Below are positions 13,148 to 64,000 of a stretch of 64,000 nt of DNA, piece after piece. The position numbers and the translations under genes are program-made. This stretch comes from Bilabrum cf. latius (lineage: Eukaryota). The stretch lies in the NCBI GenBank assembly GCA_965178125.1, contig OZ237756.1:806001-870000 (forward strand). Direction: 5' to 3'. Each line of letters starts with the position of its first letter. Within the stretch, counting starts at the first letter, position 1. The notes under the pieces are model-generated. The model did no database searches. It worked only from the letters and a program-made list of their open reading frames with translations, and was not told the origin of the DNA.

Positions 13148-13155
13148 TTATACAA

Positions 13156-22243: not shown

Positions 22244-23302
22244 TTGGAGGCCGAGAGAGCGGCATGGGCACTGCTTAATATCGCAGCTGGATCGGAGGGC
22301 CTGAAGCATGCTGTAGTGGATGAAGGTGCGCTGCCTGGGTTGGTGTGCCTGCGTGGATCCAGCAAGGGTTTGGAGGCTGAGAATGCTGCATGGGCGCTTC
22401 AAAACATTGCTAATGCGTCCAATAGCCTGAAGCGGGCTGTACTGGATGCAGGTGCGCTGCCCGGGCTTGTGGACCTGCTTGGATCTAGCAAGGGCTTGGA
22501 GGCCGAGACGGTGGCATGGGCACTGCTTAATATCGCAGCTGGATCATACGACCTGAAGCAGGCTATAGTGGATGAAGGTGCGCTGCCCGGGCTGGTGGGC
22601 CTGCTTAGATCTAGCAAAGGCAAGGAGGCCAAGACGGCGGCTTGGGCACTGCTTAATATCGCAGCTGGATCGGAGGGTATGAGGCAGACTGTAGTGGATG
22701 CAGGTGCGCTGCCCGGGCTGGTAGTGTTGCTTGGATCCAGCAAGGGTTTGGAGGCCGAGAGAGCGGCATGGGCACTGCTTAATATCGCAGCTGGATCGGA
22801 GGGCCTGAAGCATGCTGTAGTGGATGAAGGTGCGCTGCCTGGGTTGGTGTGCCTGCGTGGATCCAGCAAGGGTTTGGAGGCTGAGAATGCTGCATGGGCG
22901 CTTCAAAACATTGCTAATGCGTCCAATAGCCTGAAGCAGGCTGTAGTGGATGCAGAAGCGCTGCCCGGGCTTGTGGACCTGCTTGAATCTAGCAAAGGCG
23001 AGGAGGCTGAGAATACGACATGTGCACTTCTTAACATTGCAGCTGGATCGAAGGACCTGAAGCAGGCCGTGGTGGATGCAGGTGCGCTGCCTGGGCTGGT
23101 GGTGTTGCTGAGATCGGGCAAAGGCGAGGAGGCTGAAAATGCGGCGAGGGCCATTTCGAATACTGCAGCTGGATCGAAGGACATGAAGCAGGCCGTTGTG
23201 GATGCAGGTGCGTTGGGCCCACTAAGGCAGCTGAGGGACTCTATCACAGGACCAACTCGTACGAGGGTCCGAGCGGCTCTGCTGGTTTCGGGCGAGGCGT
23301 GA
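22244..23302 (+). pseudogene. 3' part of a host armadillo-repeat gene interrupted by the virophage insertion
   Basis: Begins mid-repeat (TTG GAG GCC GAG) right after the viral G7 end; ~42-aa ARM repeats; C-terminus and 3' flank near-identical to gene 33607-36801. Confidence 0.82.
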
Positions 23303-23943
23303 TCTTCGGTAAAAGTCCATGGATATCCAATGTATCTTTGGGAAGCTAGCTGATCGGGCCCTTGTCAAGGTGCTTGTACTGCCCTTAACTGTAGTACAAG
23401 CACATGATGAGGCTACTGGTAGTACAGGCGTGGACGGGCAAGAAGAGGAGGGTGACGATGATGTCATAGGAGGTCTTGAGATACGTGACGTGGCTTGCGT
23501 CGGGGCAGGAGGTGGTGGATTGCAGGGTGCGGCGGGAGGGGCCGTAGGTCCAGCTCCGAGCGAATGCGGTGGCTGTGGGTGCTTGGTCTGGTGGATTGCT
23601 GAGCGGTCAGTTCGCGTCGTTCCGTCAGGAGGTACAGGTGGAGCGGGCCCGTTGGGAGGCCGCCCGCCGGTCCTCGTCCTCGTCTAGGGGACACACGGGG
23701 GGCAGCTTCAGCGGTGGGATCTGTACGGTCGTGGGAGGTCCTCGGGGGGGGGAAGGGGCGGGTTGTTAATCAGAACTCGGGAGTTGGATGTGCCATCTTG
23801 CCTGATTGCCTGAAGTACAGGCGAATCCACCTTCGTGCCAGCCGAACCCAGTGCGCGGCATCTCAGCTACGGCGCCGTGCACGCTGTGGTCCCGTTTAAC
23901 TGAAGTCCGGGCATGTGCCAGTGAGGGCAGATGAATCCTCGGA

Positions 23944-24244
23944 GCACCCTAAGGGTGGGGGTGGCAGGCAGGTGCAGCGAGTGCTAGTGCAGGGCATCGT
24001 CCCCATCAGCGAGGGCACTCTAAGGGTGGGGGTGGCAGGCAGGTGCAGCGAGTGCTAGTGCAGGGCATCGTCCCCATCAGCGAGGGCACTCTAAGGGTGG
24101 GTGTGGCAGGCAGGTGCAGCGAGTGCTAGTGCAGGGCATCGTCCCCATCAGCGAGGGCACTCTAAGGGTGGGGGTGGCAGGCAGGTGCAGCGAGTGCTAG
24201 TGCAGGGCATCGTCCCCATCAGCGAGGGCACTCTAAGGGTGGGC
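23944..24244. repeat. Minisatellite, 71-bp unit x ~4.2
   Basis: TAAGGGTGG recurs at 23950, 24021, 24092, 24163 and 24234 with near-identical intervening sequence. Confidence 0.92.
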
Positions 24245-24706
24245 TCACCAGACGGTGGGGCCACAGCTCATAGATCAAAAAAATCTAGCGATGGAAGCCT
24301 GCTCGATCCGGATGTGGTCGTCATGCCGTTGGCATGTCGGTTCGAGCTGCCCGGGCTAAACTTGCCGGCTGCTCCTCTCTGGACCGTTTAGGAGCACTCG
24401 CATGAAATCGTGTTCGGTGAGGTAGATGCAGGACGTAGATATGATATGATATATATGGGGGGATGTTCTAGAGACATTAGAATATGTCGTGGGGATCAGG
24501 TGGGGATAGTGATGTGAGGGATCCTGCAGAGAAGCGCCTGTAAGCCTGATGGTTGGATGTAGTTTCGATTGCGATGGACCACCTCTGTTCCTGGCAGCCT
24601 AACCTGGATCCAATTACCCGCAGTCCTTTGTTGGCATTGCATTAATCCTGCCGATTTCCCCGCTACAGCCTCACCACAAGCGCACGTGACGGCTTCATCC
24701 GCCCCT

Positions 24707-27209
24707 TCACACGGCCTCGGCCACCGGATGCTCTTCATTCGCATCGATCGCCTTGTCGTCTTTCTTGGCAATCCCTGGCTTCGTGTTCCTGCATTTAAAG
24801 AAGTAGGTGGCTGCTCCCACCGTGACGGCAATGACGACGACCACCACCACCACGATGATGATGACCATGCTGGCCCCTCCCTCGTCGCCATCCTCGTCCG
24901 TGGAAGGAGCCACAGCCTCCTCCACTTGCTGGTCCTATTCTTGTACGGTGACCTCCACGGCAATACTCGTCGTATCAACCGCGAGTAGCTGGGCTATCTC
25001 GGCGGGCGCAGCCATCCTGAGCACCTCCACCAGCGTCTCATCTTCGGACGTGGTCCTGTTGCCCCGCAGGAAGTCCAGGATATCCTGCCTCGTCTGCTCC
25101 ACGTCGGTGCGCTCCAGCGGAATAGTCACGGTGAAGTCCAGCTCTGTGGTGGAAACACCATTTTCCTCTGAGCCCGAGGCCTGAAGGGAGCGGCCCCTGC
25201 TGGTCGAGGACGGGGTCAGTCGGTCGATGACCACATCATCGCTTCTAGCCACGTCCCCGATGGCAGTGATGAAGGGAGTCAGCAGGATCGACTCGAAGAT
25301 GGGCGTGGTCACGCTCTACACCTAAGTCCCGGATACCCTGATGCGCCTGCCCCTGCGTCTCTTGGGAGCCGTGCACGTGTTGCTGCTGGCCGAGCACACG
25401 AGTCCACTTGCACAGTTGGCTGTGAGGATGCAGGTCCTACCCTGAGAGCACAACGAGCAGCCTTCAGCAGACGCGTCCCCGCAGTCAATGTCGGTTTCCT
25501 GGCCGTTGGTCTCGCCATCACTGCATGTCGATCCTGCGGCACTACCGGTGCTGGATGTGCTCGGCATGGGCGAGGTGCTGGGGCTGCTGGTGATGCTCGG
25601 CGAGGGCGAGGTGCTGGGACTGCTGGTGATGCTCGGCGTGGGCGAGGTGCTGGGACTGCTGGTGATGCTCGGCGTGGGCGAGGTGCTGGGGCTGCTGGTG
25701 ATGCTCGGCGTGGGCGAGATACTGGGGCTGCTGGTGATGCTCGGCGTGGGCGAGGTGCTGGGGCTGCTGGTGATGCTCGGCGTGGGCGAGATGCTTGGGC
25801 TGCTGCTCGGGGTGGTCGACGGCGACGGCGACGGCGATGGAAATACCACTCCATTGAACAGGATCCAAGTAGCCCCACTGCCCTGTCCTCCATCATCATC
25901 GCTGGCTGCCCCCACTGCGAGGTCGGTGGTGCCATCTCCGTCCAGATCGCCTAGGGATGCCACGGAAGATCCGAAGAAGTCACCACCGACCAGCTCGCCG
26001 GTGAAGCCGCCTTCCGTATCGGAGATCTTCTGGTGGGACTTGACGGTGCCGTTGGCGTTCAAGAAGAGGATCCAAGTTGCCCCACAGTCGTCTCTTCCAT
26101 CATCATCTCCGCGCGCCCCCACTGCGAGGTCAGTGGTGTTATCTCCGTCCAGATCGCCCAAGGATGCCACGGAGGATCCGAAGTAGTCAATACGGTCCAG
26201 CTCGCCTGTGAAGCCGCCTTCCGTATCGGAGATCTTCTGGTGGGACTTGACGGTGCCGTTGGTGTTCAAGAAGAGGATCCAAGTAGCCCCACGGTCGTCT
26301 CCTCCATCATCATCGTTGGCTGCCCCCACTGCGAGGTCAGTGGTGTTATCTCCGTCCAGATCGCCCAGGGATGCCACGGAGGATCCGAAGTAGTCAAAGT
26401 TGTCCAGCTCGCCGGTGAAGCCGCCTTCCGTATCGGAGATCTTCTGGTGGGACTTGACGGTGCCGTCGGCGTTCAAGAAGAGGATCCAAGTTGCCCCACG
26501 GCGATCTCCTCCATCACCATCGTTGGGCGCCCCCACTGCGAGGTCGGTGGTGCCATCTCCGTCCAGATCGCCCAGGGATGCCACGGAGGATCCGAAGTAG
26601 TCAATACGGTCCAGCTCGCCGGTGAAGCCGCCTTCCGTATCGGAGATCTTCTGGTGGGACTTGACGGTGCCGTTGGTGTTCAAGAAGAGGATCCAAATAG
26701 CCCCACGGTCTCGGCTTCCATCATCATCATCTCCGCGCGCCCCCACTGCGAGGTCGGTGGTGCCATCTCCGTCCAGATCGCCCAGGGATGCCACGGAGGA
26801 TCCGAAGAAGTCCGCATTGCCCAGCTCGCCTGTGAAGCCGCCTTCCGTATCGGAGATCTTCTGGTGGGACTTGACGGTGCCGTTGGCGTTCAAGAAGAGG
26901 ATCCAAGTAGCCCCACGGCCCCGGCCTCCATCATCATCGTTGGCTGCCCCCACTGCGAGATCGGTGGTGCCATCTCCGTCCAGATCGCCCAGGGATGCCA
27001 CGGAAGATCCGAACCTGCCGTCATTGCCCAGCTCGCCTGTGAAGCCGCCTTCCGTATCGGAGATCTTCTGGTAAGATTTGACAGTCAAGTTAGCTTTTGT
27101 CGTACTCAGCTCTCGCCTCAAAGGGCGCTTTGCTGTCACAGCCATTGCGAGGTTGTACCCCATCGCAGCGAATACAGTTGGGGCAGCCGCCACGGCCGCC
27201 GCAATGATG
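24707..27209 (-). CDS. Type I membrane protein: ~6 FG-GAP (integrin-alpha-type) repeats, Ser/Thr/Pro stalk, Cys-rich domain, TM helix and short tail (5' exon unresolved)
   Basis: Repeats FGSSVASLGDLDGDGTTDLAVGA; CSDGETNGQETDIDCG; TM VIIIVVVVVVVIAVTVGAATYFF; three track ORFs joined by TAG; probable acceptor CAG at 27212-27210. Confidence 0.85.
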
Positions 27210-28096
27210 CTGCGACAAGCAAATTGAGCGGATTCTAAAACATTAGGTTTTGATGTATGGCTTTACCTACCGCAATGCTGCCAGGTGCACGAGATAAGAA
27301 GAGGGTGTAAGCCGCTGCAAGCGATTTTACAGTCCAACCGTTCTGCTCACAGGTATGCCTTCGCGCCAAACGTCAGAGGCATTTTTTGTTAATATCCGGA
27401 TGTGGTTCTTCCAGCTGCGATGCTTCGAAGGGCATGAATCAAGTCAACGGAGCAGCATCGAGCAGTGAAGGGACAACAAGGTACTCGCAGGACACCATGC
27501 TTGGAGCTGGCAGTGTGCAACTGCTATGGAACAGTTGGTGGATCGTGTTTGCTCCGTGACACTATGATATACCGACTAGTCTTGCGTGAAGTGTAGATGG
27601 GCCCTGGCTCTGTTGCCGAGCATCTGTAGCAGGCGGCATCCATATGGATCAACGGTACGAATACCAAACGGCATCAGAACGTGTGGTCTTTAGATTGCTA
27701 GTATGATGCTTTATCTCACGTATGAGGCTGGATGTTGCAAGGGGCTTCGGGTGAGACCTCTCGAAAGCTGTATCAGCTGAATCAAGACTGATGAGCGAAC
27801 GGACAAATTCTGAACAGATTCTAGACCTTTCTTTGATTCTCAAGAACTTTCCACGCAAAGCTCTATTCCGATCACGGTCAGTCTCACAAGATTCTGCATC
27901 CTGAGCTCTAAATATTGGTATCTTTACGTTATTTTGGGGAACTGGTCAAGCCAATATATCAAGAATGTTTTACAGGCTTGTTTGTCTCCGATTCGGGCAG
28001 CGCGCCTTTGGAAAAATGCTTTACAGTAGCTCGGGTTCGATGCATTGCAGCTTTCCTCAGCTGTTCACGCTCTCAACACAATAAGTGTATTTGTAA

Positions 28097-30886: not shown

Positions 30887-31073
30887 CGGAGCCCTGCACG
30901 GGCACAGCCGCGGCGGCTGCGCCGGTGGGGCTCTTCGCCTCTCCTAGATCGAGTGACGTATCCGTCCGCTTGCACCGGCCCCGCCGGCGAGCGCTCCTCA
31001 TCCGAGCAGCTCGTCGACGGTGCCTTCGTCGCCGCCCCCGTTGATAGTGGGTACCGCGGGGGCGACCAGGCAG

Positions 31074-33085: not shown

Positions 33086-33606
33086 GGCAAATATATAGCG
33101 GCTGCTACGGGAGATACTACTGGGCTTCACCCCGAACGACTGGTTCTTCACCGGTCCACCTGAATGCGGTATTCATCTGACACTACGAATGTACACACCA
33201 CTTTCCCCATGCACCCGACTGGCCTCGTCGCCACATGGCTTCCTGTTCCTGTTCCCCGCCCTAGGGACCGTGTGCTTTGCTCCCAGCATTGCCATCTTGG
33301 CCCTATCCTTTCAGCTTGCACGCGCCGGTCCTGGCCGACCTGCCGTGCGCCCCATCTGTCCACCCGCCTGTTGGCCTTCTGCGTGCTGCTGGCCATGCAG
33401 TCCGCTGCCACCCGCGTCTCCCTCGTGCCTTGCACCTGGAGCCCCCATTCCTCCCGTTGTGTTCTCCCTGTTGACACCGCACTGTCGTCGCCTGTGCCGG
33501 TGTCCCCCTCTTCTTCTCCACCTCCTGTCCTCCTGCGCCCACCTCGTCTTCCGTCTCACCTCTGCTCCCCGTTGCTTCAATCCTGATGTCCGAGTACATA
33601 TAACAG

Positions 33607-36600
33607 TTTGAGTGCGTGTGTGGGCCTCCCCTGTGGATGGTGGAGATGATGCCTGACCCGAAATCGGTGTGCAATGACATCGGGGATGATGACGTTGGTA
33701 GTAGTGACGATGCGGAGGAAGGTGTACCGTCCGCTGGCGCCGCCCCCTTGCGGCCCCGCAAGGCACAGATGGTGGGCATGGAGCTGCTGCAGAGGCGCAT
33801 GTGCGACCATCTGGAATACCTGGAGAATGATGAGCCGGGATCTATGTCTGATGATGTGCTTGTGCAGCTGTCCAGCGACATCGCGGATGGCGTGCATCAC
33901 CTGCTGCAGCATGGGGTGGTGCACCGTGTCCTGAAGCTGGACAACGTGATGTGGGACTCGAAGGGGGGTCCGGAGGGCGTGGGTCGTGCGGTGCTGACCG
34001 GCCTGGGGTGCTCGCTGCGCGTGCATGTGGAGGAAAAAATATCACTGTTAGCTGATCCCGCTGCTGCCACTGCTGCTGGTAGTTGTGTCAGCATATCGTC
34101 CCCGTGTGTAGAGGAGGCACTGGATCGGGTCACGTATCGGTACCTAAAGGATAATGGTGACGGGCTTGGCGGCAATCAGGCACATCTGGCCCCTGAGGTG
34201 CTTGACGGGTGGAACAGGGGGGCGGCAGGAGACGACACAGCCGAGGTACCATTTGGAAAGCAGGCCTCGTGGGAGCTGGGTGTGCTGCTGCACGAGCTGG
34301 CCACGGGAGGGCAGCACCCGTTCGGCGACTCGTATCCTGGTGAACTGCAAGAGGGCACCAAGACTAAACCAGGAGAGCTGGCAGCTGCATTGCATGCATG
34401 TGTGGCGCCGATGGCAGGTCAGGATATGCTATCTAAACGTCCTGGATGGTATGTTATGATCATCCGTGACCTGCTTTGCATCGATCCCGGGGACAGGATG
34501 GGAGTGCAGGAGGCCATGGATATGTTGCAATCTGGCGGAGACTCACTTAGAGGACCATCTCCAGATGCTGACGTCAGCGCCCTGCTGCCTGCGTTGCTTG
34601 CCGGGGGCGAGGAGTGCGAATCAGCGGTGGTCAGGATCAGGGCGCTGGTGGATGGACTGCAATCAAAGGGGGACTGGGATGGGGTGTACCGAGTGCTTTA
34701 GCAGCTGGGGGTCGAGTCGGGACTCAACCAAGCCAATGATGCAGATACAAGTGCCCATCAGCTGCTCGAAGATGTCAGAACCGCCGTCTCGGATCACGTG
34801 CTATCAAACACAGGCGAGCTGGAGAGGATCGTGAAGTGCCTCGGCTTGGATAGGAGGATGGACCCCGAGATGGGAGCACTGTTGATATGGCGCGCATGTT
34901 TTAGAAACAAAAGAGCACGGCGGATCCCGTTTGCTGAAGCGGGTGCAATCGCAGGGGTGGTCGGCCTGCTTGGATCTAGAAAGGGTAGGGTGGCCGAGAT
35001 TGCGGCGCGGGAGCTGTCGAGTATGGCTGTCGAATCCGAAGGCCTGAAGCAGGCTGTTGTAGATGCAGGTGCGCTGCCTGGGCTGGTGGGCCTGCTTGGA
35101 TCCAGCAAGGGCTTGGAGGCCGAGACGGCGGCTTGGGCACTGCTTAATATCGCAGCTGGATCCGATGGCGTGAGGCAGGCTATAGTGGATGCAGGTGCGC
35201 TGCCTGGGCTGGTGGGCTTGCTTGGATCCAGCAAGAGCTTGGAGGCTGAGAAAGTTGCATGGGCGCTTCAAAACATTGCCGGTGCGTCCAATAGCCTGAA
35301 GCGGGTTGTAATTGCTGCAGGTGCACTACCTGGGCTGGTTGGCCTGCTTGGATCCAACAAGGGCTTGGAGGCCGAGAGAGCGGCATGGGCACTGCTTAAT
35401 ATCGCAGCTGGATCGGAGGGCCTGAAGCAGGCTGTAGTAGATGCAGGTGCGCTGCCTGGGCTGGTGGGCCTGCTTGGATCCAGCAAGGGCTTGGAGGCAT
35501 AGAGAGCGGCATGTGCGCTTCTTAATATCGCAGCAGGATCGGAGGGTATGCGGCAGGCTGTAGTAGATGCAGGTGCGCTGCCCGGGCTGGTGGGCCTGCT
35601 TGGATCCAGCAAGGGCGAGGAGGCCGAGAGAGCGGCATGGGCACTGCTTAATATCGCAGCTGGATCGGAGGGCCTGAAGCAGGCTGTAGTAGATGCAGGT
35701 GCGCTGCCTGGGCTGGTGGGCCTGCTTGGATCCAGCAAGGGCGAGGAGGCCGAGAAAGCTGCATGTGCGCTTCTTAATATCGCAGCAGGATCGGAGGGTA
35801 TGCGGCAGGCTGTAGTAGATGCAGGTGCGCTGCCCGGGCTGGTGGGCCTGCTTGGATCCAGCAAAGGCGAGGAGGCTGTGATTGCGGTGAGGGCCCTTTT
35901 GAATATCTCTGTTGGATCCGATGGCCTGAGGCATGCTGTAGTGTATGCAGGTGCGCTGCCCGGGCTGGTGGGCCTGCTTAGATCTAGCAAAGGGGAGGAG
36001 GCCGAGAGAGCTGCATGGGCGCTTCAATACATTGCCGGTGCGTCCAATAGCCTGAAGCGGGCTGTAATTGATGCAGGAGCGCTGCCTGGGCTGGTTGGCC
36101 TGCTTGGATCCAGCAAGGGTGAGGAGGCATAGAGAACGGCATGTGCGCTTCTTAATATCGCAGCAGGATCGGAGGGTATGAGGCAGGCCGTGGTAGATGC
36201 AGGTGCGTTGCCCGGTCTGGTGTGCCTGCTTGGATCCAGCAAGGGTTTGGAGGCCGAGAGAGCGGCATGGGCACTGCTTAATATCGCAGCTGGATCGGAG
36301 GGCCTGAAGCAGGCTGTAGTAGATGCAGGTGCGCTGCCTGGGCTGGTTGGCTTGCTTGGATCCAGCAAGGGCGAGGAGGCCGAGAAAGCTGCATGGGCGC
36401 TTCAAAACATTGCCAGTGCGTCCAATAGCCTGAGGCAGGCTGTAGTGGATGCAGGTGCGCTGCCCGGGCTGGTGGACCTGCTTGGATCTAGCAAAGGCGA
36501 GGAGGCTGAGAATGTGACATGTGCGCTTCTTAATATTGCAGCTGGATCGAAGGACCTGAAGCAGGCCGTGGTGGATGCAGGTGCGTTGCCCGGACTGGTG

Positions 36601-36801
36601 GTGTTGCTGTGTTTAAGCAAAGGCGAGGAGGCTACAACTGCGGTGGAAGCACTGCGTTGTATCTCTTGCGGATCGGAGGGCCTGAAGCAGGCTATAGTGG
36701 ATGCAGGTGCGTTGGGCCCACTGAGGCAGCTGAGGGACTCTATCACAGGACCAACTCGCACGAGGGTACGAGCGGCTCTGCTGGTTTTGGGCGAGGCGTG
36801 A
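33607..36801 (+). CDS. Kinase-like (pseudokinase) C-lobe plus long armadillo-repeat array; terminal exon, upstream exons not identified
   Basis: HRVLKLDNV, LTGLG, HLAPEV, SWELGVLLHEL; about 15 ARM repeats; four track ORFs joined by TAG; pyrimidine-rich intron-like sequence ending CAG at 33606. Confidence 0.8.
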
Positions 36802-48764: not shown

Positions 48765-51700
48765 ATGGATGCATTATCGGAAGATTATGAGGTACGCCTT
48801 CCGACCGGCCTTCGAACGTGCGCCGTCAAGGACTGCGACATGGGGGCAAACGGCAAGCAAACCAAAGCAGAGGTTGCACAGGGCGTGCTATCCGATTCTT
48901 TCAGGCTGGATCAATCCATAGAATCTTCTATGGATTCAACAGAGCGGAAGCGTGGGCGCTAGGATGCAGTCGAAGCAATGTTTGCGGAGGCAGCAGCAGG
49001 TTGCGGCAACAGCCTATCATCTGCAAAGGCAGCTGAGGATAGCGATAGTGACACTGAGCCGGAGATCACTATGCCAACACTCAGGATGACGACCCTTGCC
49101 AACCCAATGGGCTCGCACCCGAAATCGCGAGCCGCAAGCAGCCGCGATGACACCGACCGACGTGGCTCAGCCGCCCGACTGGACACCCTCTTGCCCCACC
49201 ACGCCGACGCTGACGGGACCGAGCACAGCTCTATCATAGGTGGTGGAACGACCACGCTCAACACCACGGTGAGGCACCCGATCGGAGCTCTCGTCGACCT
49301 CGAGGCTTCGTTGCCTATGGCACAGCAGCAGCACCACCATGCGATGCACCGCGAATCCGGGCAGACGCTGGCACCCATGCTAACGAGCAATCGTACTGAT
49401 CGTACTGATATATGTGACGAGTGTCCGGTTTATGACGAGTGCGATGCGTCGTGGGAGGACGACGACGACGAGGATGCGCATCCTGAAGGCAGGGGTGAGG
49501 GCGAGGGCGCGAGCCGGTTCGCGAGGAAGGGTCTGCACGAAGCCGAGCAGCATGGTCGCACCATTAGGCATGGCCTACTTGGTGTTCGGTCCGAAGGTTC
49601 GCTGGGTTTGGAGCAGCCTGGGCACGGCAGCTCGACTGCCCACTCCTCGTGTGATGCTGCAGGTCCGGGGCTTGACGCTGGGGAGCTCCGGCGGGTGCTG
49701 CAGGGCGATGCACCCAAAGTACCTTCCCGCTTGCGTCACCCCCTAGACGGAGGGAGCACCTGTTCCGGTTTTGAAGAGGCACCGTTTCACCCTCCCGAAT
49801 TAGGCGTCTATCACGGGGCCGTGGCAGCGGGAGGCCACGGTGGAGGACTCGGAGCCGCAAATTGTTCCCTGGGAAGCCCTCTAGCTCCCGTGCTGGAGGC
49901 CGATGGCGTCGGCGGTGCTGCCACTGGCGATGATGAGCACCCGGTCTCGGCAGGTTCCGCAGGATGCGCGGCGCCGTGGCAGGCCTCTGAGGGTGAGGGC
50001 CTGCCTTGGGCCGACGCGAGCCTAGAGCTGGGTCCTTTGCGTGACTGCCTGCCCGCGGATGCATCGCATTGCAGCGCAGGGAACGGCAGCAGCAGCAACG
50101 ACGTGACTCTCAGGCTTTCGTTGCCGCCGAGGCAGCCTGGGCAGCCGCTTGGCTTCGTGCCCGAAGAGGAAAACGAAGATGAAGAAGAGGAGGAGGAGGA
50201 CTCCTAGGACGGTTCCGGGGCAGGATCGGATCAGTCCAGCGGTGGATCCACAGGTCGCGAGAGCCGCGGCAGCAGCAGCAGAAGCAGCCACCGCCAGCAC
50301 CGCCACACAGAAGGGGGAACGGTGGCCCAACGCCAGGACCAGCACAACGCGTTGCTACCACCGCATGGAAACAGCACCATCACGGACATTGCAGCTGCAC
50401 CAACACCAGCAGCACAAGAAGCAGGCCGTGACCATTCCCATGGCAAGATCACATGCACAAGGTCTGCTGCACTGGCCCGAGGATTCGTCCTGCCAAAACC
50501 GAGGTTCGCAGACGATGCCAGGGAACAAATCGCACCCAGGGAACAAGGAAGCAACTTGTCGAGTCCTGCATCCGCAAGTACAGGACTACAGGCAGGGGCA
50601 TCAAGCGCCCAGACTAGTGCCATTCAGACAGACGAGCCAGTCTCAGGACCCGCTTCGACGAGCGCATCCTCTGCCCATGCCCGTGCAAGCACGCACGCAC
50701 GGATGTCAGAGAGACCTGCCAGCGCCGGGCCGAGATCGGCAGCTGCAGAGAGCAAGTCCACCCTCCGGGGACCGCCGCTCCGATCGAGTGAGGCACGGTA
50801 CCAGCGGAAGCAGCAGCGACAATCACCCCGGCCTGTGCAGGCTCCGATCGAACCGGCCCGCGAGGCATCATCATCATCCTCAGTCTCGGTCGCAGCCGCA
50901 GCCTCAGCTCCCGTCGCTAGATCGAAACAGGGGCGGAGGCTGCCCGTGGCGCGCGCACTGTTTGCGGAACCTGCAGTGGCTCCGCGCAGCAAGCCGAAGC
51001 CCCGCGGGCGTCGCGGTCGAAAACCGGCTGCCCGGACAGGCAACGGGAAGTCCGGAAATGCCAGGGGCGCCAGTACCGGTGTGACGAGTGCGAAGACCCG
51101 CCGCAGCGGAGCACCAACCGCAGCCCCCAACGCGCGGCCGTCAGCATCTTCTCAGCCCTTGACATCGAAGAAGACGAAACGTCGCAGCAGGTCGCGGCGC
51201 CGCGCTTCGAGACGAGCAGGTTCCGCTAGGCGCGGGCGATCATCTACGAAGGTGCCCGCCACTGGCACCGCCGCATCCTCCACGCATGCGGGTGCATCGC
51301 ACGGTGATGCGCCGCCCACGCCGCAGGAACGGGCCGAGACGGCAAGGCGCGCAGCGGCGAGGTCTCTCAGCCGGTCTCGATCCCGCGCTAGAGGACGGCC
51401 CGTCGATGGTAGCGCCAGCCTCAGTTCGAACCCCAGTGCTCGCATGGATGGGCTACACGGCGTTGCAATCGGTGGTGAGCAGGAGATGGTCGAGGAGGAG
51501 GAGGAAACCGGCCGCGACATGATGGAGGGCTTCGAGTTCGAGGAGGGCAGGTGCGGTGCCTACGAGCTCGTGCAGGACCAGAATGAAGATGAAGATGAAG
51601 ATGGGCATGAGGTTGGTGGGACGGGCCGTGTGAACTCGGCAGGAGAAGATGCTGTGCAGAGCGCAGAAGAAGAGGGCGAGGAGGGCCGGCCCGGCATGCT

Positions 51701-52487
51701 CAAAGCAGGCGAGCAGAACGATGGCGAGAGCGGGCACGCCGCCCCCGCTGCGCCGGAGCAAGTGCTCGGCAGCTGGTCGCAAGAAGAGCAGCGGGGGGAG
51801 GCCGCCCTAGAGGCCCTTCTCAGCGACGGGGCGCGGGACTTAGGTTCCGCAGGCGTGGGCGCCGCGAAGCTGGAACCCATGCCGCTCACCGACGAGGCCA
51901 AGCCGACGCAACCGCAGCGGCGCCGCGCAGCAGGTTCCGCAAAGAAGGCGGCAGCCGCGGCGCTGCGCGCTCGGGAGCGACGCGTGGCCCGGGCGAGGAA
52001 CGGAACCTACCGGGCGCCGCGCAGAAGCCGCGCGGGAGCGGTCCGGGCCGTGGGTCCCCTGGCCGCCGCCACCGACTACGGTCGCAGCCCGTCGTTGGCA
52101 CGCCGCCGCAGTGCGATGCATCATCCGGGACCGTCGCCTGACTCGATCGCAAAAGAGAAGGCCAGGGTCAGGGGAGGCAGAGCGAAGTCGTCGGCCCGTG
52201 GGACACGAGCAGGAGCAGGAGCAGGAGGAGCCATGGCGAGCTCGGGCGCGGCTGCAAGGCCAGGAAGCAAACAGAGGCGCGCAGGTTCCGCAAGGACGAG
52301 AGCAAGCCGCGCACAAAATGCTCGCTCGAGTGCCTCTCGAGTCGGCCAGAGGCACGACCTGGTCGTGACGAGAGTGCGAGCAGCGATGCTTCACGCCCGA
52401 GCAAGTGCCTTGCTCGCTTCACCCGTGCGCTCGCACCCGTTCCTGGGCACGCGCCGCACCACGCGCGGGAAAGTGCTGGCCATCTGA
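48765..52487 (+). CDS. Large low-complexity, probably disordered hypothetical protein (~1240 aa)
   Basis: Single frame from ATG 48765 to TGA 52487 with only two TAG interruptions. Confidence 0.7.
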
Positions 52488-52886: not shown

Positions 52887-55800
52887 ATGGCTGCGCAGGA
52901 TGGCAGTCGCGCATCTTCTGCGGCCGCTGGCGGGCAGCCCCAGAGCTGGGAGGCTCCCCAGCTGCACCTAAACGACGTTTCCACGTCGGATTCCGGCGTT
53001 AAGGTCCAAATCGACACCTTGGGTACTATTGACACGATTGAAGGTGGGAGTAATATGCCGTACTCGACCGATTAGCTCCATGATTAGCGTAGGGTTGCAT
53101 GGCAGGGCGACAGCGGGCCGAGGCTACCCGCAACTCGAACTCCAAGCGGCACGTCTCGACGACGAGTAGGCGCTGGATCCCACAGAAAATCAGGATCACA
53201 CATAGACATGAGAACGTCCTTGTCGCAATCGAGCCTTGCCTCCAATCCGCTGGCAAGGACGGTTGGCGGGAAGGGACGGAACAGAACAGCACACGGCAGC
53301 GACAGGTCTGTCGGGTCAGGCGGCGTAGGTAGGGGGTCTCGTCGAGGAACTCGGCGCGGCCCTCGTCTTAGTCCGCTCGAAGCAGCTCCCGTCCCGCAGA
53401 TGCTCGGTTGGGATTAGCTTGATCGCCTGGCTTCGCAGCTCGGCGTAACACCGATGGGAAAGGCTTCTCCAGACATTGAGGCGTCCACGCAGGGTGGAAT
53501 TAGTATGGGCCGGCCTGATACAGTCGGAATTTCGTCGGTGCCAGGCTCTGCGCCTGGTTCTGCGCGGGCAGCTGGAGCCAGCATGTACAGCGGTTCGGCG
53601 GCCCATCCAGGCGGATTGCCGAACGCGTCCCGTGATGTCGAGCTCAAGCTGCGCATTATGGTGAGATTCTTGTTGGTTTTATTATTGCGTGGTCTTCTCA
53701 CCTGTTTCTGATCCCCGTGCCCTTCGCTGCCAAGGTGCCGTTTCTAGACTGCGATGCGTTGATTGCGCTCGGTGTCAGCCGACGGGTTGTTCCGTGCGGC
53801 ATGGCGCTAATTTCGCTTGTATTTTCATTGTTTTGGTCTGCAACGTGCCTGCCAAGCCCTTTGATCCCGGGTACCCGCCCTTCGACGACGCACCATGGGT
53901 TCACGTTCTCAAAGTCCACCTGCACCACGCAGCTCGATGAGGAGCGGCAGCGCCTGCAGAGAAAGGAGGAGCACTGCGTGGAGCTGGAAAGATAGATGCG
54001 GTCGCTTTCGGATCGATTGTCGGCGGTGCACACCGACTTTGCTCGCTCCATGCGCGAGAAGGATCGCGAGCGCGAGCAGGAGATCGAGAACCTCGAGAAC
54101 CTCTTCTCCTCCAGGCTACAGTCCATGCAGCTAGATCCGGCCACTGGCGCAATGCGTGACCGGGGCAAGGGCCGCTCGGCCGGGAGCGAGGCCGAGGGCG
54201 AGGAGAGCAAGTCGCCGGGACGAGGCGAGAGCGAGTAGCCGCACGGCACCGCCGGGGTCACGGCAGCGGCCACGGAAGTGTTCCGCCGCCTGGAAGCGAT
54301 GGAAAAATAGCATGAAGACGCGCAGCGCGAGTGGGAAGCGGTCCGCGCCACGCTCAAGCGAGAACGGGACGAGGCCGTGGAAAACGCGAAAATGGAAGCG
54401 GCGCGCGGCCGCCAGGACAAGGACGACCTCGCGGCGTCGCTGCAGCAGCAGATCGATTCACTCAGGCAACAAATTTCAGATCTGAAAGCGGACGCCGAGC
54501 AGCACCGTGCGAGGGAGCAGGCGCTCCAGTCGCAGCTGGAGGGCTCCCAGCGTGACACGCAAAGGGCCCAGGAAGCCCTCCGTAAAGTCGAGGAACAGCT
54601 GCAGGACCAGATAAGAGACACCAAGGAAGCGAGGCAGGAAGCAGACCTGCAGCGCAGGAGGGTGAGAGCTGTCAGGGAAGCGGCCATCGACGGGAAGGAC
54701 GTGCTCGCCGCCGCCGACGCCGTGTCCTCCTCCTCCGATGGAGGCGGCGCCGCGCAATCCGGTTCCGCAATCCGACACCCCGCGGCGTCACCCTCCCCCG
54801 GGGAACACGACGCGGTGGTGCAGCTGCTCCGCACGAGGCAGGAGCTGCAGTCCTCCAGGGCCCAGCGCGACCGGGAGGAGTCCGAGCGGCGGGAGGCGCA
54901 GGCCGCCCTCGAATCGGCACGGGCGGAGCTGCGGCGGGTCATGGAGGAGTCCTCCCTGGAGGTTGCAACCGTGCGAAGGGAGAACGCCAGGGAGGTGCAC
55001 GCGCTCAACCAGAACATGGACGAGGCAAGGGAGGCCTACAGGGAGGAGCTAGGGCTGCTGCGGAAAAAGACCGCCAGCCTGCAGCACCAGGTGACGTCAG
55101 CGGCGAGCCAGGCAAGGGAAGCCGCGGAGCTGCGGGCCGCAGACGCGGAGAAACTCCGGCGGGTCACGGACCAGCTGGAGGCAGCGGGCAAGGACCAGAG
55201 GGACGCCCAGATGCGGCTTCAGACCGTCCTGAGGGCCGTGGCTAGAAGGCACGGGGTGTCGGAGAAGGAGGCAGAGGAGGGGCTTGCGACTGGTTCCCTG
55301 GCACCCGCCCAGGAAAAGGAGGGGGGCGGCGATGAGCACCAGAACGGCGGGGGCGAGGGCCCCTCGTCTACCGCCGCCGAGGGGGCTGCAGCGAAAGGTG
55401 CCTCGGGATCATCGAGGCGGTCCTCTTCCTCCTCCGCCTCTGCGGTCGGTGGCAACGCCGCTGACCTCCGGGAGGAGCTGGCGCTGGTCAGGCGACAGTG
55501 GGACGAGGAAGTGCACTGCAGGAAGAGGCTGGAGCAGGCCCTGAAAGACGCACACGCGGCGCTGCAGCAGGCCAGGACCGAAGGGGAGCAAGCGGTTGCA
55601 ACCTCCAGGGAACAGCACCAGGCCGAACTGGAGCAGGCCCAGGCGGAGCACACCAGGCTGAGGAACAAGCTGGACGAGGCGGGTGACGCCCACGACGAGG
55701 TCAAGGCCGAGGTGACGTACCTCCAAAAGCGGCTGGAGGAGGCAGAGAGCGAGTCCCAGGGGCTGCTGAGGAGGCACCGGGAGGATGAAGACAAGATCGC

Positions 55801-58198
55801 GTCGCTGGAGGCGGCCGAACGGACCCTTCGAGCGGCCCTGCAGGACGCCTCGGGTGAGGCCAGGAGGGCCCGGGGGGAGGCGGCTCAGACCAGGGAACAA
55901 CGGGAGCAGAGCCTCGAGGCCGTGACCAAGGCTGCCGAGGAGGAGCGGAGGAGCCACGTGGCACAGGTGGAGAGGCTCGAATCCGACAGGCTGCGGCTGA
56001 AGGCCGACCTTGCCCAGAGCAGAGCAGAGGTGGCCAAGCTGCACGACCACCACACGTCCTACGTCAGGTCGGCCAGCAAGCTAGAGGGGGCGAGGCGGGT
56101 GGCCAGGGTGCTGCAGGGGTGGGTGGCCTCTCGCCGCGCCAGTTCCCTCCGGGCCTGGCAGCAGCACGTGGAGCGGAAGATCGCGTGTGACGAGTGCAAG
56201 GAGGCGGGGCGCAGGGCCAGAGAGGCGGCCGCGCAGGAGAAGGAGGGGGAGATGCGGAGGGCGCTGGCAGAGCTCAAGGACCGGCTCTCGGGGGACTCGG
56301 AATCGAAACTCCGAGAGGCCAGGTAGGAGTCGCTGCGACGTGCACTGGAGAACGCGCGCATGGCGGAAGAGGAGGTTCGATCGGAGCGGATGAGGCAGGG
56401 CATGTGGGCCGAGGCACGGCTGCAGGCGTCGAGGGAGGCCCTCGCGGACAGCTGGAGGAAAGAGGCATAGTCCATGCGTGAGGCCTTCTAGGAGAGCAAT
56501 CGGGAGGAGCAGGAGCGCGCCAGGGAACAAGTCGAGGCCGCTCGCAGGGAGAAGGAGGAGGCCCTCGAGCAGTTCATGGAAGAGGCCAGGGAGGAGCAGG
56601 AGAGGCACCACAGGGACAAGCAGGAGGCGATCGAGGCGATCGAGGAGCAGAAGGAGAAGGAGAAGGAACAGGCCGTGGCGGAGGTCGTCCGCGAGATGCA
56701 GCAAGACACGGAGCGGGCTGCGGCCGCCGCCCTGGAAGCCAAGGAACAAGAGGCGGAGGAGAAGGTCGCTGAGCTCACCGCGGACTACGCCTCCAGGGTG
56801 GAGCGGCTCGAGAGGCACGAGAGGGAGTCCAGGGAGAGCCTCAGGAAGAAGCTGGAGGAGGAGCTGGAGGACATGGAGGCCGATCGTGACGAGTGGAGAG
56901 CGGCCGCGGAGAAGCACCAGGCACTGGCGCAGAACCTGGGCAAGGCAGCCGCGGTGCTCCGGGTGGCGCTGCTGTCCGCAGAGCTCCGATCCGGCGTGAG
57001 GAACAAGGACCTCAGGGAACAACTGGATCGGATCACGGGGCTGCACGGGCAGGAAAAGGCTCGTGCGGACGCTGCGGAGCGGAGGGTCAGCGAACTCGAG
57101 CGAACGTTCGTTGTGCGCGCGCGTCGCCTGGAGGACATGCGGGAGGGCATGCGAGACGCGCTCACCGAGAGCAAGAGGAAGCAGCTGATGGATTTCCGTG
57201 TGACGAGCGCGAAGCTGGCCCGGGCCGTGGCCGAATCGGAGGAGCGAGTACAGGAGCTGGAGGACGAGCGGAACATGCGGGAGGAGGAATTGCGCGGCGC
57301 CGAAGAGGCCGTCCGGGAGGCGGAGGCTGGCCTCCGGGAAGTCTCCGAGCAATCGAACGTGGGCTCGGACGGCAGGGTAGACATGGCCGTGGCCAGGCGC
57401 AAAAAGAACATGCACACGGCTCACCAGAGGGCCGTCAACCGGCTCTCGGAGACCAGGGCGCGCCTTCGGGCGATGCACGACGCGGTGGAGGCTGCGGAAC
57501 AGGAGCGCGGCGCCCGGGAGGAGGAGCTCAAGGCCGTGGAGCGGGACCTACTCGTCACACTGATGGAGCAGCAGAAGGGCCTGCTGGCCATCTTGAAGGC
57601 GCCGGGGGAGCCGGGCTTCGAGGTGGGGCGGTACGAGGGGGACGACGCTGTTCCCCAGGGAACAACGGGGGGTGGGGGAGGTCAAAGCGGCGCCATGAGC
57701 GCTCGGAGCCACGAGAGCACCAGCACGGGCGCGGGACCGGGTGCACTGCACGGTGGTTCGAGCACCGGCGGGTTTGCAGTCGCGACTGCGAGCGGGATTC
57801 AGAGCTTCGCCCCGCAGGGGACCCCGAGTGGGGAGGGGGGGGGTATCCCCGGGAGTCGCGGGGGGCATGGTGCTCCCGCGGCATCGGATGGATTCGGAAT
57901 CGCCCCGGATCACTCGTCACACCAGCAGCAGCCGTGGCAGGCCCCCTCCCTCGCCCTCGCGGGCCAGGGGGGGCATGGTGCCGCCTCCTAGGGTGCATCG
58001 CACGGTGGCATTCCGCGGGCCCCCAACTCTGCCCTGCCTCGCGCGGGCGGGCCGGCCTTCACGCCCCTAGTTGGGAGTGATGGTCGTGGCGGGCCCGCGG
58101 GCGCAGGCCAGCGACGGGACGGAGGAAGCGCCTCGATGCCGCCACGGGAGGTGCGGTTTTCGGCGCAGGGGGCGCGTGGGGGCAGCGGCATTGGCTGA
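52887..58198 (+). CDS. Large coiled-coil protein; one predicted intron (53661-53932)
   Basis: E/R/A/Q-rich heptads; track ORFs joined by TAG; GTGAG...CGCAG intron restores frame; TGA stop. Confidence 0.78.
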
Positions 58199-58418
58199 AT
58201 TGCCCCTGGTTTCTAATGGGTGTTCGTAGAGAGTGATTGCTTGCGATTCATGCACATATCTATCGATCAGCGAACCACCAATCGGCAATCGGATCCGGAT
58301 GTTTCGAGTTGCGCGTACTTTGAGCATCAATAATCACAATAATGGTATTCGGGCCAGCTGCAACATTGAATATCCGTCGCTGCACAGTATTTTTCTGGCT
58401 CGTGCACGGCACCGAATC

Positions 58419-60647
58419 ATGTACCGAAGGGTTTTGCAGAGAGTCGCAGGGCTGACATCCCGAAGATTTGGCTTTTCGAGGAGTAGTACGGTTGCTCGCT
58501 CGAGCTCGTCGACGAGCACATCCCTTGGATCCTCGGCACGATTGGCATAGAGTGCAACCTTGCAGGGGAATATAAATAGATCATATGATTCAGTTGCCTA
58601 CCATTCATGGACAAGATCCACCTCTGGACATTCGGGGCGAAGCGACGGCATTCGATCCATCTCATCAACGGCAAGTCAAGACGACTCAAAACAGCCGTCG
58701 AGCGAGCAAGCGGCTGCCCCCTCGGCCGCCGAAGCATCATCTTCATTCTGGGATACTTGGTTTACATCCAAGGGCGCGGAACTCCCGGAGGGAACCGAGA
58801 TAAACCGGTGGTCCATGGCAGTTCCAGCCACGCTCATCCATTTCTGCATCGGAGCCCCGTACGCCTGGAGCGCGATTTCCGGCCCTCTGACGAGAGAGCT
58901 GGGTGTTGTCACATCCGCGGTAGACGACTGGTCCCTGGCCGAGACCAGCCTCCCCATGAGTTTCGTGTTCGGCGTGATGGGCCTTTCTGCCGCAACGCTG
59001 GGCATGTTCCAGGCCAGGGTGGGGCCAAGGGCCACTTCGCTGATGGCGGCAGCATGCTACGGGGGCGGTTTCGGGCTGGCAGCCATGGGCGTGGCCATGC
59101 ATAGCCTTCCCGTCATGTACGCTGGGATCGGGGCGCTGGCTGGGCTGGGCCTGGGCGTGGGGTACACGCCCCCTGTGCAGGCCCTGATGCGCTGGATGCC
59201 CGATCGCAAGGGGGTGGCAAGCGGGCTGACGATCGCGGGGTTCGGCTCCGGGGCGCTGTTCTTCGCCCCCATGACGGGGTATCTCCTGGACACCTTCAAG
59301 GAGGCACCCACGGTGGTGGGCAAAGCGGCGGAGGTTGCAACCACCCAGGAGGGAGGGAAGCTCATGGCGAAGATAGCGGGGGGCAGGCTCGTGGAGGTGG
59401 TGGAAGCCACGGGGGAGGCAATCAACAACGCTGCAGCGGGTCTCGAACCCGCGACCAGCTACTTGGTGGAGGTGGGGTCGGGAAACACGGGAGCTGCCGC
59501 CACATTGGCCACCTTTGGGGCGCTGTACGCAGCGATCTTGGCCGGCAGTGCCGCCGCCATCCGCCTCCCGCCCCCCGGATACGTCCCGCCGGTTGCAACC
59601 GCAGACGCCTCTGTAGCAGCGGCAGCGGCGGGGACGAGCACCGGAGAAGCGGTCGCGAAATCGCCAGACGAGCCAGAGGGCGTGCCGCCCATGCCGGTCA
59701 AGGACCTGGGACCCAACGAGGTCATCAAGACCCCGGAGTTCCTGTTGCTTGCGACCACTTTCACGGCGGTGGCGGGAGGGGGCATGGCCCTGTTTGCCGT
59801 GGCCAAGCCGATGATGAATGACCTGATCAGCTCCGGAGGGGCCGCGCTCCTGGGCTCGATCCCCGCTGCGACGGCCAGCGTGGCTTACCTCCAGATGGTG
59901 TCGATGGGGAACCTGGGGGGTAGGCTCGGCTGGGCTGCTTTCTCGGACAAATTCGGTCGTGCCACTGTGTTCCGAGTGTTCACCTGGGGCTCGATCCCGC
60001 TGTTCCTCAGCGTGCCCCTTCTCTCGTCCTATGTGGCAGACCACAACTCCTTCGCGGCTCTGGCTGGTTTCGCTCTCAGCACAGCAGTGGCGGTATCAAT
60101 GATGGGGGGCACTTACGCCGTGCTGCCCGCCTACGAAGCGGACCTGTTTGGCACAAAGAACGTGGGTGCGAACCACGGTAGGATGCTCCTAGGATCCACG
60201 GCGGCGGCACTCGGCGGGCCCTCGCTGCTCCTTGCACTCCGGGGCATCTCTGAGCAGGCCGCCATTCAGGACCTGGTCAAAGCCATCGACCCGGCAAAGT
60301 TCCGGGACATCTTCGGGAAATCCCCGGAGGACCCGGAATCGATCTAGGCTCTGATCGAGTCGAAGTCTCTGACGATTCAGAGCGCCCTGGCAGCCGCGCC
60401 CCCAGGCACACCTGACCCGAGCTCCGGACTCTACGACAGCACCATGTACACGATGGCGGGGGTTCTATTCGCGGCGGCACTCGCTCACGAGGTTGTCGCC
60501 ATGCGTCAGAACAGGAGGCTAGCGGACTGGGAGGCCAAATGGAAGGCAAGCGGGGCGGTGGAGGCGGAGGGCAAGGCCAGGGAGGCTGCAGAGGACGGTG
60601 TGAGGGCGAGCGAGGTGGCGAGCGGCAGCGGGGGCAAGGATGCTTGA
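58419..60647 (+). CDS. MFS transporter, oxalate:formate antiporter (OFA/YhjX)-like, with an N-terminal presequence
   Basis: IHFCIGAPYAWS, WMPDRKGVASGLTIAGFGSGA, GNLGGRLGWAAFSDKFGR, LPAYEADLFG; two in-frame TAG. Confidence 0.88.
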
Positions 60648-60886
60648 TGGTTGGGTGGACATCGCGGGGTATCCTTAGGTGCGTATTTCTATATTATAAT
60701 CATAAAGGCTGCACTGATCCGATGTACTTAGTTTTGTGATTATTGGTTCAATGTGGAAATTTGGAAACAAAGCAAGCAAACCGCCGGTTGCAACCCAGTC
60801 ACTGGCAGGCAGCCTCAGGACTTGGGGGGCACTGGCGAAAGATCTACAGGATGACACGCGACTTCTTCTAAAGCTCAGAGCTGCCT

Positions 60887-63800: not shown

Positions 63801-64000
63801 GCTGCAGCTTTGGTCGGATCGGTGCCGCTGGCCCCAAGTGCGCCTGCAGCGTTACTATCATAATAGTTCTGTTGATGCTGTTGCACGGCTCGCAGCATAG
63901 AAGCAGGCAGGGGCACGTCCTGCACGGGTGATTTCGTCAGAGGCCACCGAGCATTGCACAACACTCGGCAGCTGAACTCAATGCCGCCATAAGGTCCAGC
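60887..64000 (-). CDS. Cullin-family protein C-terminal region with a large tandem-repeat insertion (5' part outside window)
   Basis: FSCRVLCNARWP, RKL....HG.AEL, VMSPVQAVVVL and neddylation domain IDAAIVRVMKARKSL...EYLDR...EYLA. Confidence 0.85.
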   Translation of the reverse strand, partial: AGPYGGIEFSCRVLCNARWPLTKSPVQDVPLPASMLRAVQQHQQNYYDSNAAGALGASGTDPTKAAAGAAGASGTDPAAAAAGAAGAIGTDPAVGAAGAAGACGTDPAAAAAGAAGAIDTDPAAGAAVAAGASGTDPAAAAAGAAGASGTDPTTAAAGAAGASGTDPAAGAAGAAGASGTDPTTAAAVAAGAIDTDSTTAAERAAGASGTDPAAAAAVAAGAIDTDPAAAAAGAAGASGTDSTTAAAGAAGASGTDPAAAAAVAAGAIDTDPAPAAAGAAGASGTDPTTAAAGAAGAIDTDPTTAAAVAAGAIDTDPAAAAAVAAGASGTDPAAAAAGAAGASGTDPAPAAAGAAGASGTDPTAAAAEAAGAIDTDPAAAAAVAAGASGTDPAAAAAGAAGASGTDPTTAAAGAAGAIDTNSTTAAAGAAGASGTDSTTAAVGAAGAIDTDPTTAAAVAAGASGTDSTTAAAGAAGASGTDPAAAAAGAAGAIDTDPAAAAAVAAGAIDTDPAAAAAGAAGASGTDSTTAAAGAAGASGTDPAAAAAGAAGAIDTNSTTAAAGAAGASGTDPTTAAAGAAGASGTDPAAAAAVAAGAIDTDPAAAAAVAAGASGTDPAAAAAGAAGASGTDPTTAAAGAAGASGTDPTTAAAGAAGASGTDPTTAAAGAAGASGTDPAAAAAVAAGAIDTDPAAAAAVAAGASGTDPAAAAAGAAGANGTDSTTAAAGAAGASGTDPTTAAVGAAGASSTDPAATATGVNDDAAWTASSAAGIAAGVSTAAYGGASAGSIGAGPLGPRRSDALPGSDSRKLVYSVEHGSAELAFVPRIGAKQYTVVMSPVQAVVVLKVEELESKGEPATIGTLLRELHLPPGDADSVPVLKRVLDPLLITTRGKKRVPFLLKMKLVTDTGEAGQQLKKERKVHGGLHLNDAVGVHGGFTSKRNRILVPIKSLQLPRRKTAGAGSDSSSVDRAHAIDAAIVRVMKARKSLKAKELIEEVVRQIRLFQPDVRQVQARIGHLVDEEYLDRSESGQLEYLA
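61735..63850 (-). repeat. Coding minisatellite, 45-bp unit x ~47 (AAGAAGASGTDPAAA/TT)
   Basis: Directly visible in the sequence and the translation. Confidence 0.95.

Follow-up and report, generated by a model that had tools for sequence, protein, structure and literature searches.

A probable UAG-to-glutamine code shared by host genes and an integrated virophage-like element on a contig of Bilabrum cf. latius

The locus and its integrated element

The stretch considered here, hereafter the window, comprises 64,000 nucleotides of contig OZ237756.1 (assembly GCA_965178125.1, positions 806,001 to 870,000 of the forward strand) assigned to Bilabrum cf. latius, and it carries an integrated virophage-like element followed by a series of host genes (table 1). 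The genes of both parts lead us to conclude, with a probability of about 0.87, that the organism reads UAG as glutamine in its cytoplasm while keeping UAA and UGA as terminators, i.e. that it employs the genetic code designated NCBI table 15. A preceding inspection of the DNA letters (the sequence-only reading), confined to positions 22244..64000, had proposed UAG as a sense codon, likely glutamine, with UAA and UGA as stops; the strongest evidence lies outside those coordinates, in the element at 1-22 kb.

The base composition changes markedly along the window. Bases 1 to ~22,000 are AT-rich, with a GC content of 27-35% over most of this part, 37.5% in the first 2 kb and 42-50% in the last 4 kb, and the remainder has 48-68% GC. 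The right edge of the element was placed at the last copy of a repeat module that recurs within it, and its left end may extend beyond the window. This module, ~80-240 nt long and intergenic, occurs in the element in four copies and both orientations (5620-5860, 10135-10356, 17760-17945 and 21880-22062), the last of them lying at the right edge and adjoining host ARM repeats; the module might act as a promoter or as a terminator cassette, or represent a small mobile insert. The open reading frame (ORF) with ARM repeats that abuts the element (22205-23302) is without an N-terminal part, has a repeat period of 126 nt and is closely paralogous to the repeats at the C-terminus of the kinase-ARM gene farther downstream. 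A duplicated ARM gene, or the DNA next to one, may have been the site of integration.

The viral affinity of the element is indicated by matches of differing strength. Prim-Pol and PriCT_2, both in the primase that is fused to a helicase, and DUF5872 in another protein were all found above the Pfam cut-offs, and the two capsid genes gave hits below them: the penton protein matched the V18/19 family with an E-value of 1.2e-5 (24.7 bits, cut-off 27) and the protein resembling a major capsid protein matched MCP_V20_C with an E-value of 4.4e-3 (16.9 bits, cut-off 27). The packaging-ATPase-like gene yielded weak P-loop matches only and is split over two frames (3942-5040): an ORF with a Walker A motif (GKSGSGKS) that ends in TAA (3942-4523) is followed in another frame by an ORF with a Walker-B-like motif (LFILDD; 4543-5040), with runs of A at the junction, and this arrangement could stem from a frameshift error or mark a pseudogene, or the gene could truly be split. 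One further product is a putative protease, recognised by motifs only and giving no Pfam or PDB sequence match. The ORF at 11462-12961 (499 aa, five TAG) has no Pfam or PDB match either, and we take its motifs DINSHYPA, NSLWGK and HTDS to be those of a family-B DNA polymerase-like protein.

Table 1. Features of the window, with in-frame TAG codons and terminators. Positions are those of the window; 'stop-to-stop' denotes an open frame delimited by TAA or TGA.
Feature	Position	Strand	Remarks
Virophage-like integrated element	1..22062		16 ORFs, TAG as sense; AT-rich; Pfam matches
Penton (minor capsid, Sputnik V18/19-like) gene	5961..6914	+	5 in-frame TAG; ends TAA
Major-capsid-protein-like gene	6986..8875	+	629 codons, 9 in-frame TAG; ends TAA
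Primase-helicase gene	14840..17617	-	925 codons, 20 in-frame TAG; ends TAA
Two TAG in helicase motif	15896-15898, 15887-15889	-	stretch 15887..15898, read as PPQMMQQLARCRN under table 15
TAG at primase-helicase residue 440 (CK-TAG-FIAVDAD)	16298-16300	-	Q in 81/149 homologues, three closest included
ARM-repeat ORF	22205-23302		host; Pfam match
FG-GAP repeat membrane protein gene	24707..27165 (stop-to-stop 24707-27262)	-	Pfam FG-GAP E 1e-42; TAG 25324, 25318, 24937; ends TGA
ORF called retrotransposon RT by the sequence-only reading	28097-30997	-	TAG 28783 directly after FSDD motif
Kinase-fragment and ARM-repeat gene	33604..36801	+	TAG 34699, 35500, 36130; ends TGA
Leucine-rich repeat (LRR)-containing gene	41464 (first ATG)..45798 (stop-to-stop 41182-45798)	+	ends TAA 45796-45798
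Low-complexity ORF	48765..52487 (stop-to-stop 48747-52487)	+	TAG 48960, 50205; ends TGA
Coiled-coil gene	53801..58198 (stop-to-stop 53636-58198)	+	7 in-frame TAG; ends TGA
MFS (oxalate:formate antiporter-like) gene	58419..60647 (stop-to-stop 58560-60647)	+	TAG 58548, 60345; ends TGA
Cullin C-terminus	60887-64000	-	host

UAG codons in the element and the amino acid they specify

The AT-rich stretch of 22 kb contains no ORF of at least 300 aa under the standard code. Treating TAG as sense yields seven (930, 697, 660, 510, 322, 317 and 302 aa), treating TAA as sense yields two (315 and 310 aa), and treating TGA as sense yields none. The 16 viral ORFs together have 5363 codons, with 79 TAG but not a single TAA or TGA in frame, whereas the two other frames of the same ORFs contain 132 and 114 TAG, 196 and 385 TAA, and 106 and 278 TGA, respectively. 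At least one TAG is present in 12 of the 16 ORFs, and reading through these codons leaves the viral genes separate and compact, ended by TAA in ten cases and by TGA in six. Such a pattern could not be generated by random decay or assembly errors, and the proposal that UAG is a sense codon alongside functional UAA and UGA stops is borne out, with additional backing from the homology found on both sides of TAG in host genes (see below). If TAG is counted as a glutamine codon, it makes up 32% of the Gln-type codons of the element (CAA 144, TAG 79, CAG 23) and is 3.4 times as frequent as CAG.

The identity of the amino acid could be approached most directly through the primase-helicase gene, in which the TAG codons (20) outnumber CAA and CAG taken together (14). 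A search with X placed at every TAG retrieved 3950 relatives with E-values of 1e-3 or lower among 1.84 billion representatives, of which the best 149 were aligned, leaving out P0147, a fragment of 107 aa that is 99% identical to the window. Residues 4-923 of the predicted protein align with a 933-aa homologue across the 20 TAG, and the C-terminus defined by the TAA stop agrees well with those of the relatives, 127 of 145 ending no more than 15 residues away (median 2). Two of the TAG fall into a helicase motif that reads PP-TAG-MM-TAG-QLARCRN in the window and PPQM[IV]QQxxRCRN in the homologues, so that translation under table 15 restores PPQMMQQLARCRN at this place. The column of the second TAG (residue 577) has Q in 146 of 146 homologues; that of the first (residue 574) most commonly has A (45/147), followed by Q (26/147), with the three closest homologues having Q.

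Seventeen of the 20 TAG columns were sufficiently occupied to be used for a summed log-odds comparison, which clearly favoured Gln (+14.4 bits) over Lys as the next best residue (-5.4) and over Asn (-7.1), Ser (-13.4), Glu (-15.7), Asp (-16.2), Leu (-28.3) and Tyr (-49.7). As a control, the same procedure recovered the true residue when applied to real Q, E, K, D, L, Y and N columns, and the score obtained for Gln was not reached by any of 10000 random draws of 17 columns. Gln also stays ahead after removal of the best column (9.4 versus -0.5 bits) and of the best two (5.2 versus -0.3). A profile hidden Markov model (HMM) built without the query gave the same ranking, scoring the protein at 848.1 bits with Q at TAG, 841.4 with K, 840.5 with E and 826.6 with X. 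The closest homologue, P0001, has Q at 5 of the 20 TAG sites, a proportion comparable with that at the real Gln sites of the window protein (4/14) and not with that at its real Glu sites (2/64). The suggestion that UAG likely means glutamine is supported by these comparisons, foremost by the summed score and the column with Q in 146 of 146 sequences. The capsid protein proved uninformative on the amino acid, as neither a word-index homologue search nor tblastn against a phage collection found any homologues, and it follows that no second viral gene is usable for codon inference.

In-frame UAG in the host genes

The element resides on the same contig as the host genes and must use the host translation machinery, and on this ground the viral evidence can by inference be extended to the host; the notion that the two share the TAG=Gln code is supported. 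The host part had been described as containing at least six genes that read through TAG in frame and are free of in-frame TAA and TGA. We do find six such ORFs, but they were delimited stop-to-stop by precisely TAA and TGA, which makes a count of TAG-only ORFs circular. The in-frame TAG number three each in the FG-GAP and kinase-ARM ORFs, 11 in the LRR ORF, two in the low-complexity ORF, seven in the coiled-coil ORF and one in the MFS ORF, the last gaining a second (58548) if ATG 58419 is its start. ORF length, tried as a test of the code in the GC-rich part, was rejected: it discriminates poorly in such DNA, where making TGA a sense codon lengthens the ORFs even more (32064 aa in ORFs of at least 300 aa) than making TAG one (21418 aa). 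Among the 8087 host codons there are 25 TAG, 220 CAG and 50 CAA, so that TAG constitutes ~8% of the Gln-type codons.

More telling are the genes in which homology or coding signal continues across a TAG. The MFS protein, matching the PDB sequence of OxlT with an E-value of 2.9e-20 (in an alignment that stops before TAG 60345), was compared with 120 homologues, whose in-frame alignment extends to either side of TAG 60345. A conserved N-terminal block with the motif NRW (R in 110/120, W in 109/120) occupies part of the interval from TAG 58548 to the following in-frame ATG (58815), which indicates that translation starts at or before ATG 58419 and that TAG 58548 is read through, assuming an ATG start and no intron. 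High GC at third codon positions also continues in frame across the MFS TAG. In the coiled-coil gene, six of the seven TAG have a third-position GC of 0.80-0.88 on either side with the frame unchanged, and the remaining one (57989) has 0.75 upstream and 0.68 downstream. The kinase-ARM gene contains 12 stretches matching Pfam Arm (E 2.9e-82) that span TAG 35500 and TAG 36130, and the repeat pattern continues in frame across both codons. The low-complexity ORF has no Pfam family match and is the weakest of the six.

Two details of the kinase-ARM gene deserve mention. Of the 263 positions of the Pfam kinase model, its kinase part (33604-33970) covers 85-135 only, and immediately upstream of the ORF are two long ORFs on the minus strand without family match (28097-33071), which the sequence-only reading took for a retroelement; a disruption of the kinase gene, or a further exon upstream, is conceivable.

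The LRR ORF includes nine in-frame TAG downstream of its first ATG, among them the tandem pair TAG TAG at 44002-44007, and its product found one generic LRR match only in the homologue search. It is the sole host ORF in the window to terminate with TAA, the other seven of eight ending in TGA, and the earlier claim that TGA terminates every host gene here has to be amended accordingly. All positions quoted by the sequence-only reading for individual TAG proved correct (ACA CAG TAG TAG CTG at 43996-44010, TAG CAG CAA at 41266-41274, TAG at 60345, and GCA TAG AGA at both 35500 and 36130). The TAG CAG CAA triplet series exists as described, yet its TAG, as well as that at 41458, is upstream of the first ATG of the LRR gene and may be untranslated. 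The impression that host TAG sit in Gln runs is anecdotal and did not reach significance, with CAA or CAG at 4 of 52 neighbouring positions against 3.7% of all codons (p=0.13). As for the TAG said to lie inside a conserved MFS C-terminus, the conserved flanks are there and in frame, but the codon itself falls into an insertion, as discussed below. Within the host genes considered alone, glutamine at TAG is no more than weakly favoured; Gln is the most frequent residue (58/120) at the position immediately preceding the conserved xLIExK block that follows TAG 60345.

The designation of the minus-strand ORF at 28097-30997 as a retrotransposon reverse transcriptase (RT) was not upheld, since no RT model in Pfam (E up to 5) or NCBIfam and no PDB sequence was matched. 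A single-sequence AlphaFold model of its product had a pLDDT of 36.9, too poor for a fold search, and any RT identity would derive only from a resemblance of motifs (FSDD, YLGY-like). Nor do the data bear out the guess of a Cafeteria-type stramenopile host. The best named relatives of the MFS protein come from ochrophyte algae (47-50% identity), and in the MFS tree the window protein belongs to a clade of eight sequences without a named taxon (support 0.986); comparison of the cullin C-terminus returned eukaryote-wide clusters only and no narrower placement.

Competing explanations and relation to known codes

A number of observations weigh against UAG as glutamine with UAA and UGA as the only terminators. 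The assignment of the amino acid depends on one viral gene, in which Gln and Lys tie once the best three columns are removed (2.7 versus 2.6 bits) and four TAG columns (residues 99, 228, 380 and 485) favour Asp or Glu. In the host, TAG 60345 lies within a three-residue insertion that is absent from 120/120 MFS homologues, and the MFS profile HMM favours Q by a mere 0.6 bit (Q 698.9, D 698.3, E 698.1). The two ARM codons (35500 and 36130) align with GAG (Glu) in sister repeats, a caveat already raised from the sequence and a real one. Gln codons are not significantly enriched beside TAG in the virus (9/158, p=0.065), nor are they in the host. ARAGORN detected no tRNA gene in the 64-kb window, element included, Rfam gave no match there, and Pfam revealed no eRF1 gene among the window ORFs. 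Finally, the use of TAA as a host terminator depends on one ORF without homologues, and ORFs defined by TAA and TGA are by their construction incapable of showing genes that terminate at UAG.

The last of these points leads to the alternative that survives best, though we still consider it unlikely, namely that UAG has a context-dependent dual meaning, specifying Gln inside genes and termination at some gene ends. Every ORF described here is delimited by TAA or TGA, and two TAG are situated close enough to gene ends to be the true terminators, one (14849-14851) three codons before the TAA of the primase-helicase gene and the other (45775) seven codons before that of the LRR gene. No ORF of the window requires a TAG terminator, however, the viral genes being compact and separate with TAG read through, and dual meaning was not found in ciliates that have reassigned UAG alone (PMC11687900).

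Quite improbable is the possibility that UAG is a sense codon for another residue, Glu and Lys being the candidates. The ARM repeats, the columns leaning to Asp or Glu and the tie with Lys all speak for it, and UAG is described as encoding Glu in one ciliate (PMC10553269). The two ARM codons belong to the same duplicated repeat subtype (...ACALLNIAAGSEGMRQAVV), and their origin is therefore most likely a single GAG-to-TAG change that was later duplicated, i.e. one mutational event; if TAG is read as Gln, this is a conservative Glu-to-Gln substitution. The summed scores separate Gln from Lys and Glu by a wide interval, the HMM prefers Q by ~7 bits, the TAG sites resemble real Gln rather than real Glu sites in the closest homologues, and any other residue would replace Q in the helicase-motif column where it is found in 146/146 sequences.

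Still less probable is that only the element is recoded, by means of its own suppressor tRNA, with the host using the standard code and its TAG being pseudogene lesions or parts of introns. This idea might appeal to the ~5-fold difference in TAG density between element (1.47% of codons, 79/5363) and host (0.31%, 25/8087), and to the precedent of phages that use TAG=Gln in standard-code hosts, as set out in PMC9523058. The difference in density is nevertheless explained by base composition, CAA exceeding CAG in the element and CAG exceeding CAA in the host. The lack of any tRNA gene in the ARAGORN results argues against an element-borne suppressor, the MFS homology continues over TAG without a change of frame and leaves no space for an intron, and the six host ORFs with TAG never have in-frame TAA or TGA.

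About equally improbable is editing of U to C in mRNA, which would convert TAG to CAG before translation under a standard code. Editing would likewise place Gln at every TAG, but it would need more than 100 site-specific edits in nuclear and viral transcripts with the genuine terminators spared, and nuclear genes are not known to be subject to such a system.

Least probable of all is that the TAG represent assembly or sequencing errors, or that the element is dead and decaying. False stops are on record, and frequent, in the endogenous viral elements of protist assemblies (PMC10120064), and the packaging-ATPase-like gene is split across frames beside A-runs, but such processes would produce all three stops together with frameshifts, and TAA, the commonest off-frame stop in this AT-rich DNA, does not occur in frame even once, while TAG falls on Gln columns.

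Under table 15 decoding, then, UAG would serve as a third glutamine codon, employed sparingly in the GC-rich host genes and heavily in the AT-rich element. By analogy with known cases (PMC5304391, PMC11687900), decoding would be carried out by a tRNA-Gln with the anticodon CUA, one base removed from tRNA-Gln(CUG) and predicted not to pair with UAA, and eRF1 would have lost recognition of UAG and kept that of UAA and UGA. New TAG codons may have arisen mostly through synonymous CAG-to-TAG transitions. The prevalence of TGA among the host terminators suggests that few genes may have ended in TAG prior to the change. The presence of 79 TAG in the element implies a long residence in hosts with this code, to which the element, and by implication the giant virus that it would depend on, would be tied.

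UAA and UAG nearly always change meaning together. Codes in which UAG alone is affected have been described from Iotanema, four groups of ciliates, a rhizarian and Scotinosphaera, going by PMC5304391 and PMC11687900. The nearest counterpart outside the ciliates is the fornicate Iotanema spirale, in which UAG alone stands for Gln with UAA and UGA as stops, just as proposed here, and for which a tRNA-Gln(CUA) and an altered eRF1 have been predicted (PMC5304391). Iotanema is known from a transcriptome with UAA as the main terminator, whereas TGA dominates in the host genes of the present GC-rich genome. The ciliates Hartmannula sinica, Trochilia petrani and Protocruzia tuzeti likewise have table 15, assigned, as here, from in-frame UAG at conserved Gln positions, and 86.9-98.3% of their genes end in UAA and 78-91% hold UAG (PMC11687900). 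The host studied here differs from them in its DNA of 55-68% GC, its long ORFs of more than 1000 codons and the usual termination by TGA. In the rhizarian exLh and in uncultivated phyllopharyngean ciliates, UAG is decoupled from UAA as in our case but stands for Leu, and in Scotinosphaera it stands for Ser (PMC5304391, PMC11687900); both residues scored far below Gln in the primase-helicase alignment.

With regard to the element, a parallel is offered by the endogenous viral elements of Streblomastix strix, which belong to the polinton/virophage supergroup and share the non-standard code of their host, a circumstance interpreted as a sign of long association (PMC10120064). In S. strix, by the same account, both UAA and UAG encode Gln, whereas only UAG does so here and the element ends 10 of its 16 ORFs with TAA. 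Bacteriophages with code 15 (crAss-like and Lak phages) also read TAG as Gln but, unlike the present element, are set against a bacterial host with the standard code (PMC9523058).

Literature searches turned up no nuclear UAG reassignment in a stramenopile and no virophage or polinton-like virus that uses TAG=Gln alone. The table 15 code found here probably represents a new lineage for a known rare code, and the further point that an integrated virophage-like element has adopted it is supported. We would go further only tentatively, at somewhat less than even odds, and suggest an unreported independent UAG-to-Gln change in a GC-rich eukaryote outside the ciliates and the metamonads, with a virophage-like element fully adapted to it, to the extent that TAG makes up a third of its Gln codons. 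If this is true, a whole system of host, giant virus and virophage would operate on table 15, and the code would constitute a host-range barrier for such viruses. A UAG-only change in a GC-rich, TGA-terminating genome also bears on how such changes start: AT pressure cannot have been the driver in this genome and is excluded as such, and the rarity of TAG terminators is a candidate. The element in effect provides a natural readout of the code, and it predicts a helper giant virus that tolerates or uses UAG=Gln.

A practical consequence concerns annotation. The public 107-aa protein P0147 shows 99% identity with residues 120-226 of the primase-helicase (window ~16940-17260, minus strand), a segment lying between two TAG, and is what a gene caller set to the standard code would produce from this or a near-identical element. 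As callers of this kind fragment the genes described here, the proteome of the organism and its viral elements are probably mis-annotated. Translation with TAG as sense has its own pitfalls, as it yields artefact ORFs over the cullin repeat, for example at 61510-63975 on the plus strand with 48 TAG.

Some minor features of the window remain to be recorded. The cullin ORF (60887-64000, minus strand) comprises ~780 residues of AAGASGTDP-type repeats upstream of its Cullin_Nedd8 domain, and other frames of this repeat form long spurious TAG-sense ORFs, with 48 and 16 TAG. An intergenic tandem array of ~7 copies of a 20-nt unit occupies 9245-9397 in the element. Lastly, two minus-strand ORFs of the element (19954-20811 and 461-2539) bear GC-rich low-complexity inserts within otherwise AT-rich genes, one insert being made up of repeats of the GAGGSASSAPPS type and the other of a stretch rich in P, Q and E, and in-frame TAG are found in both ORFs.

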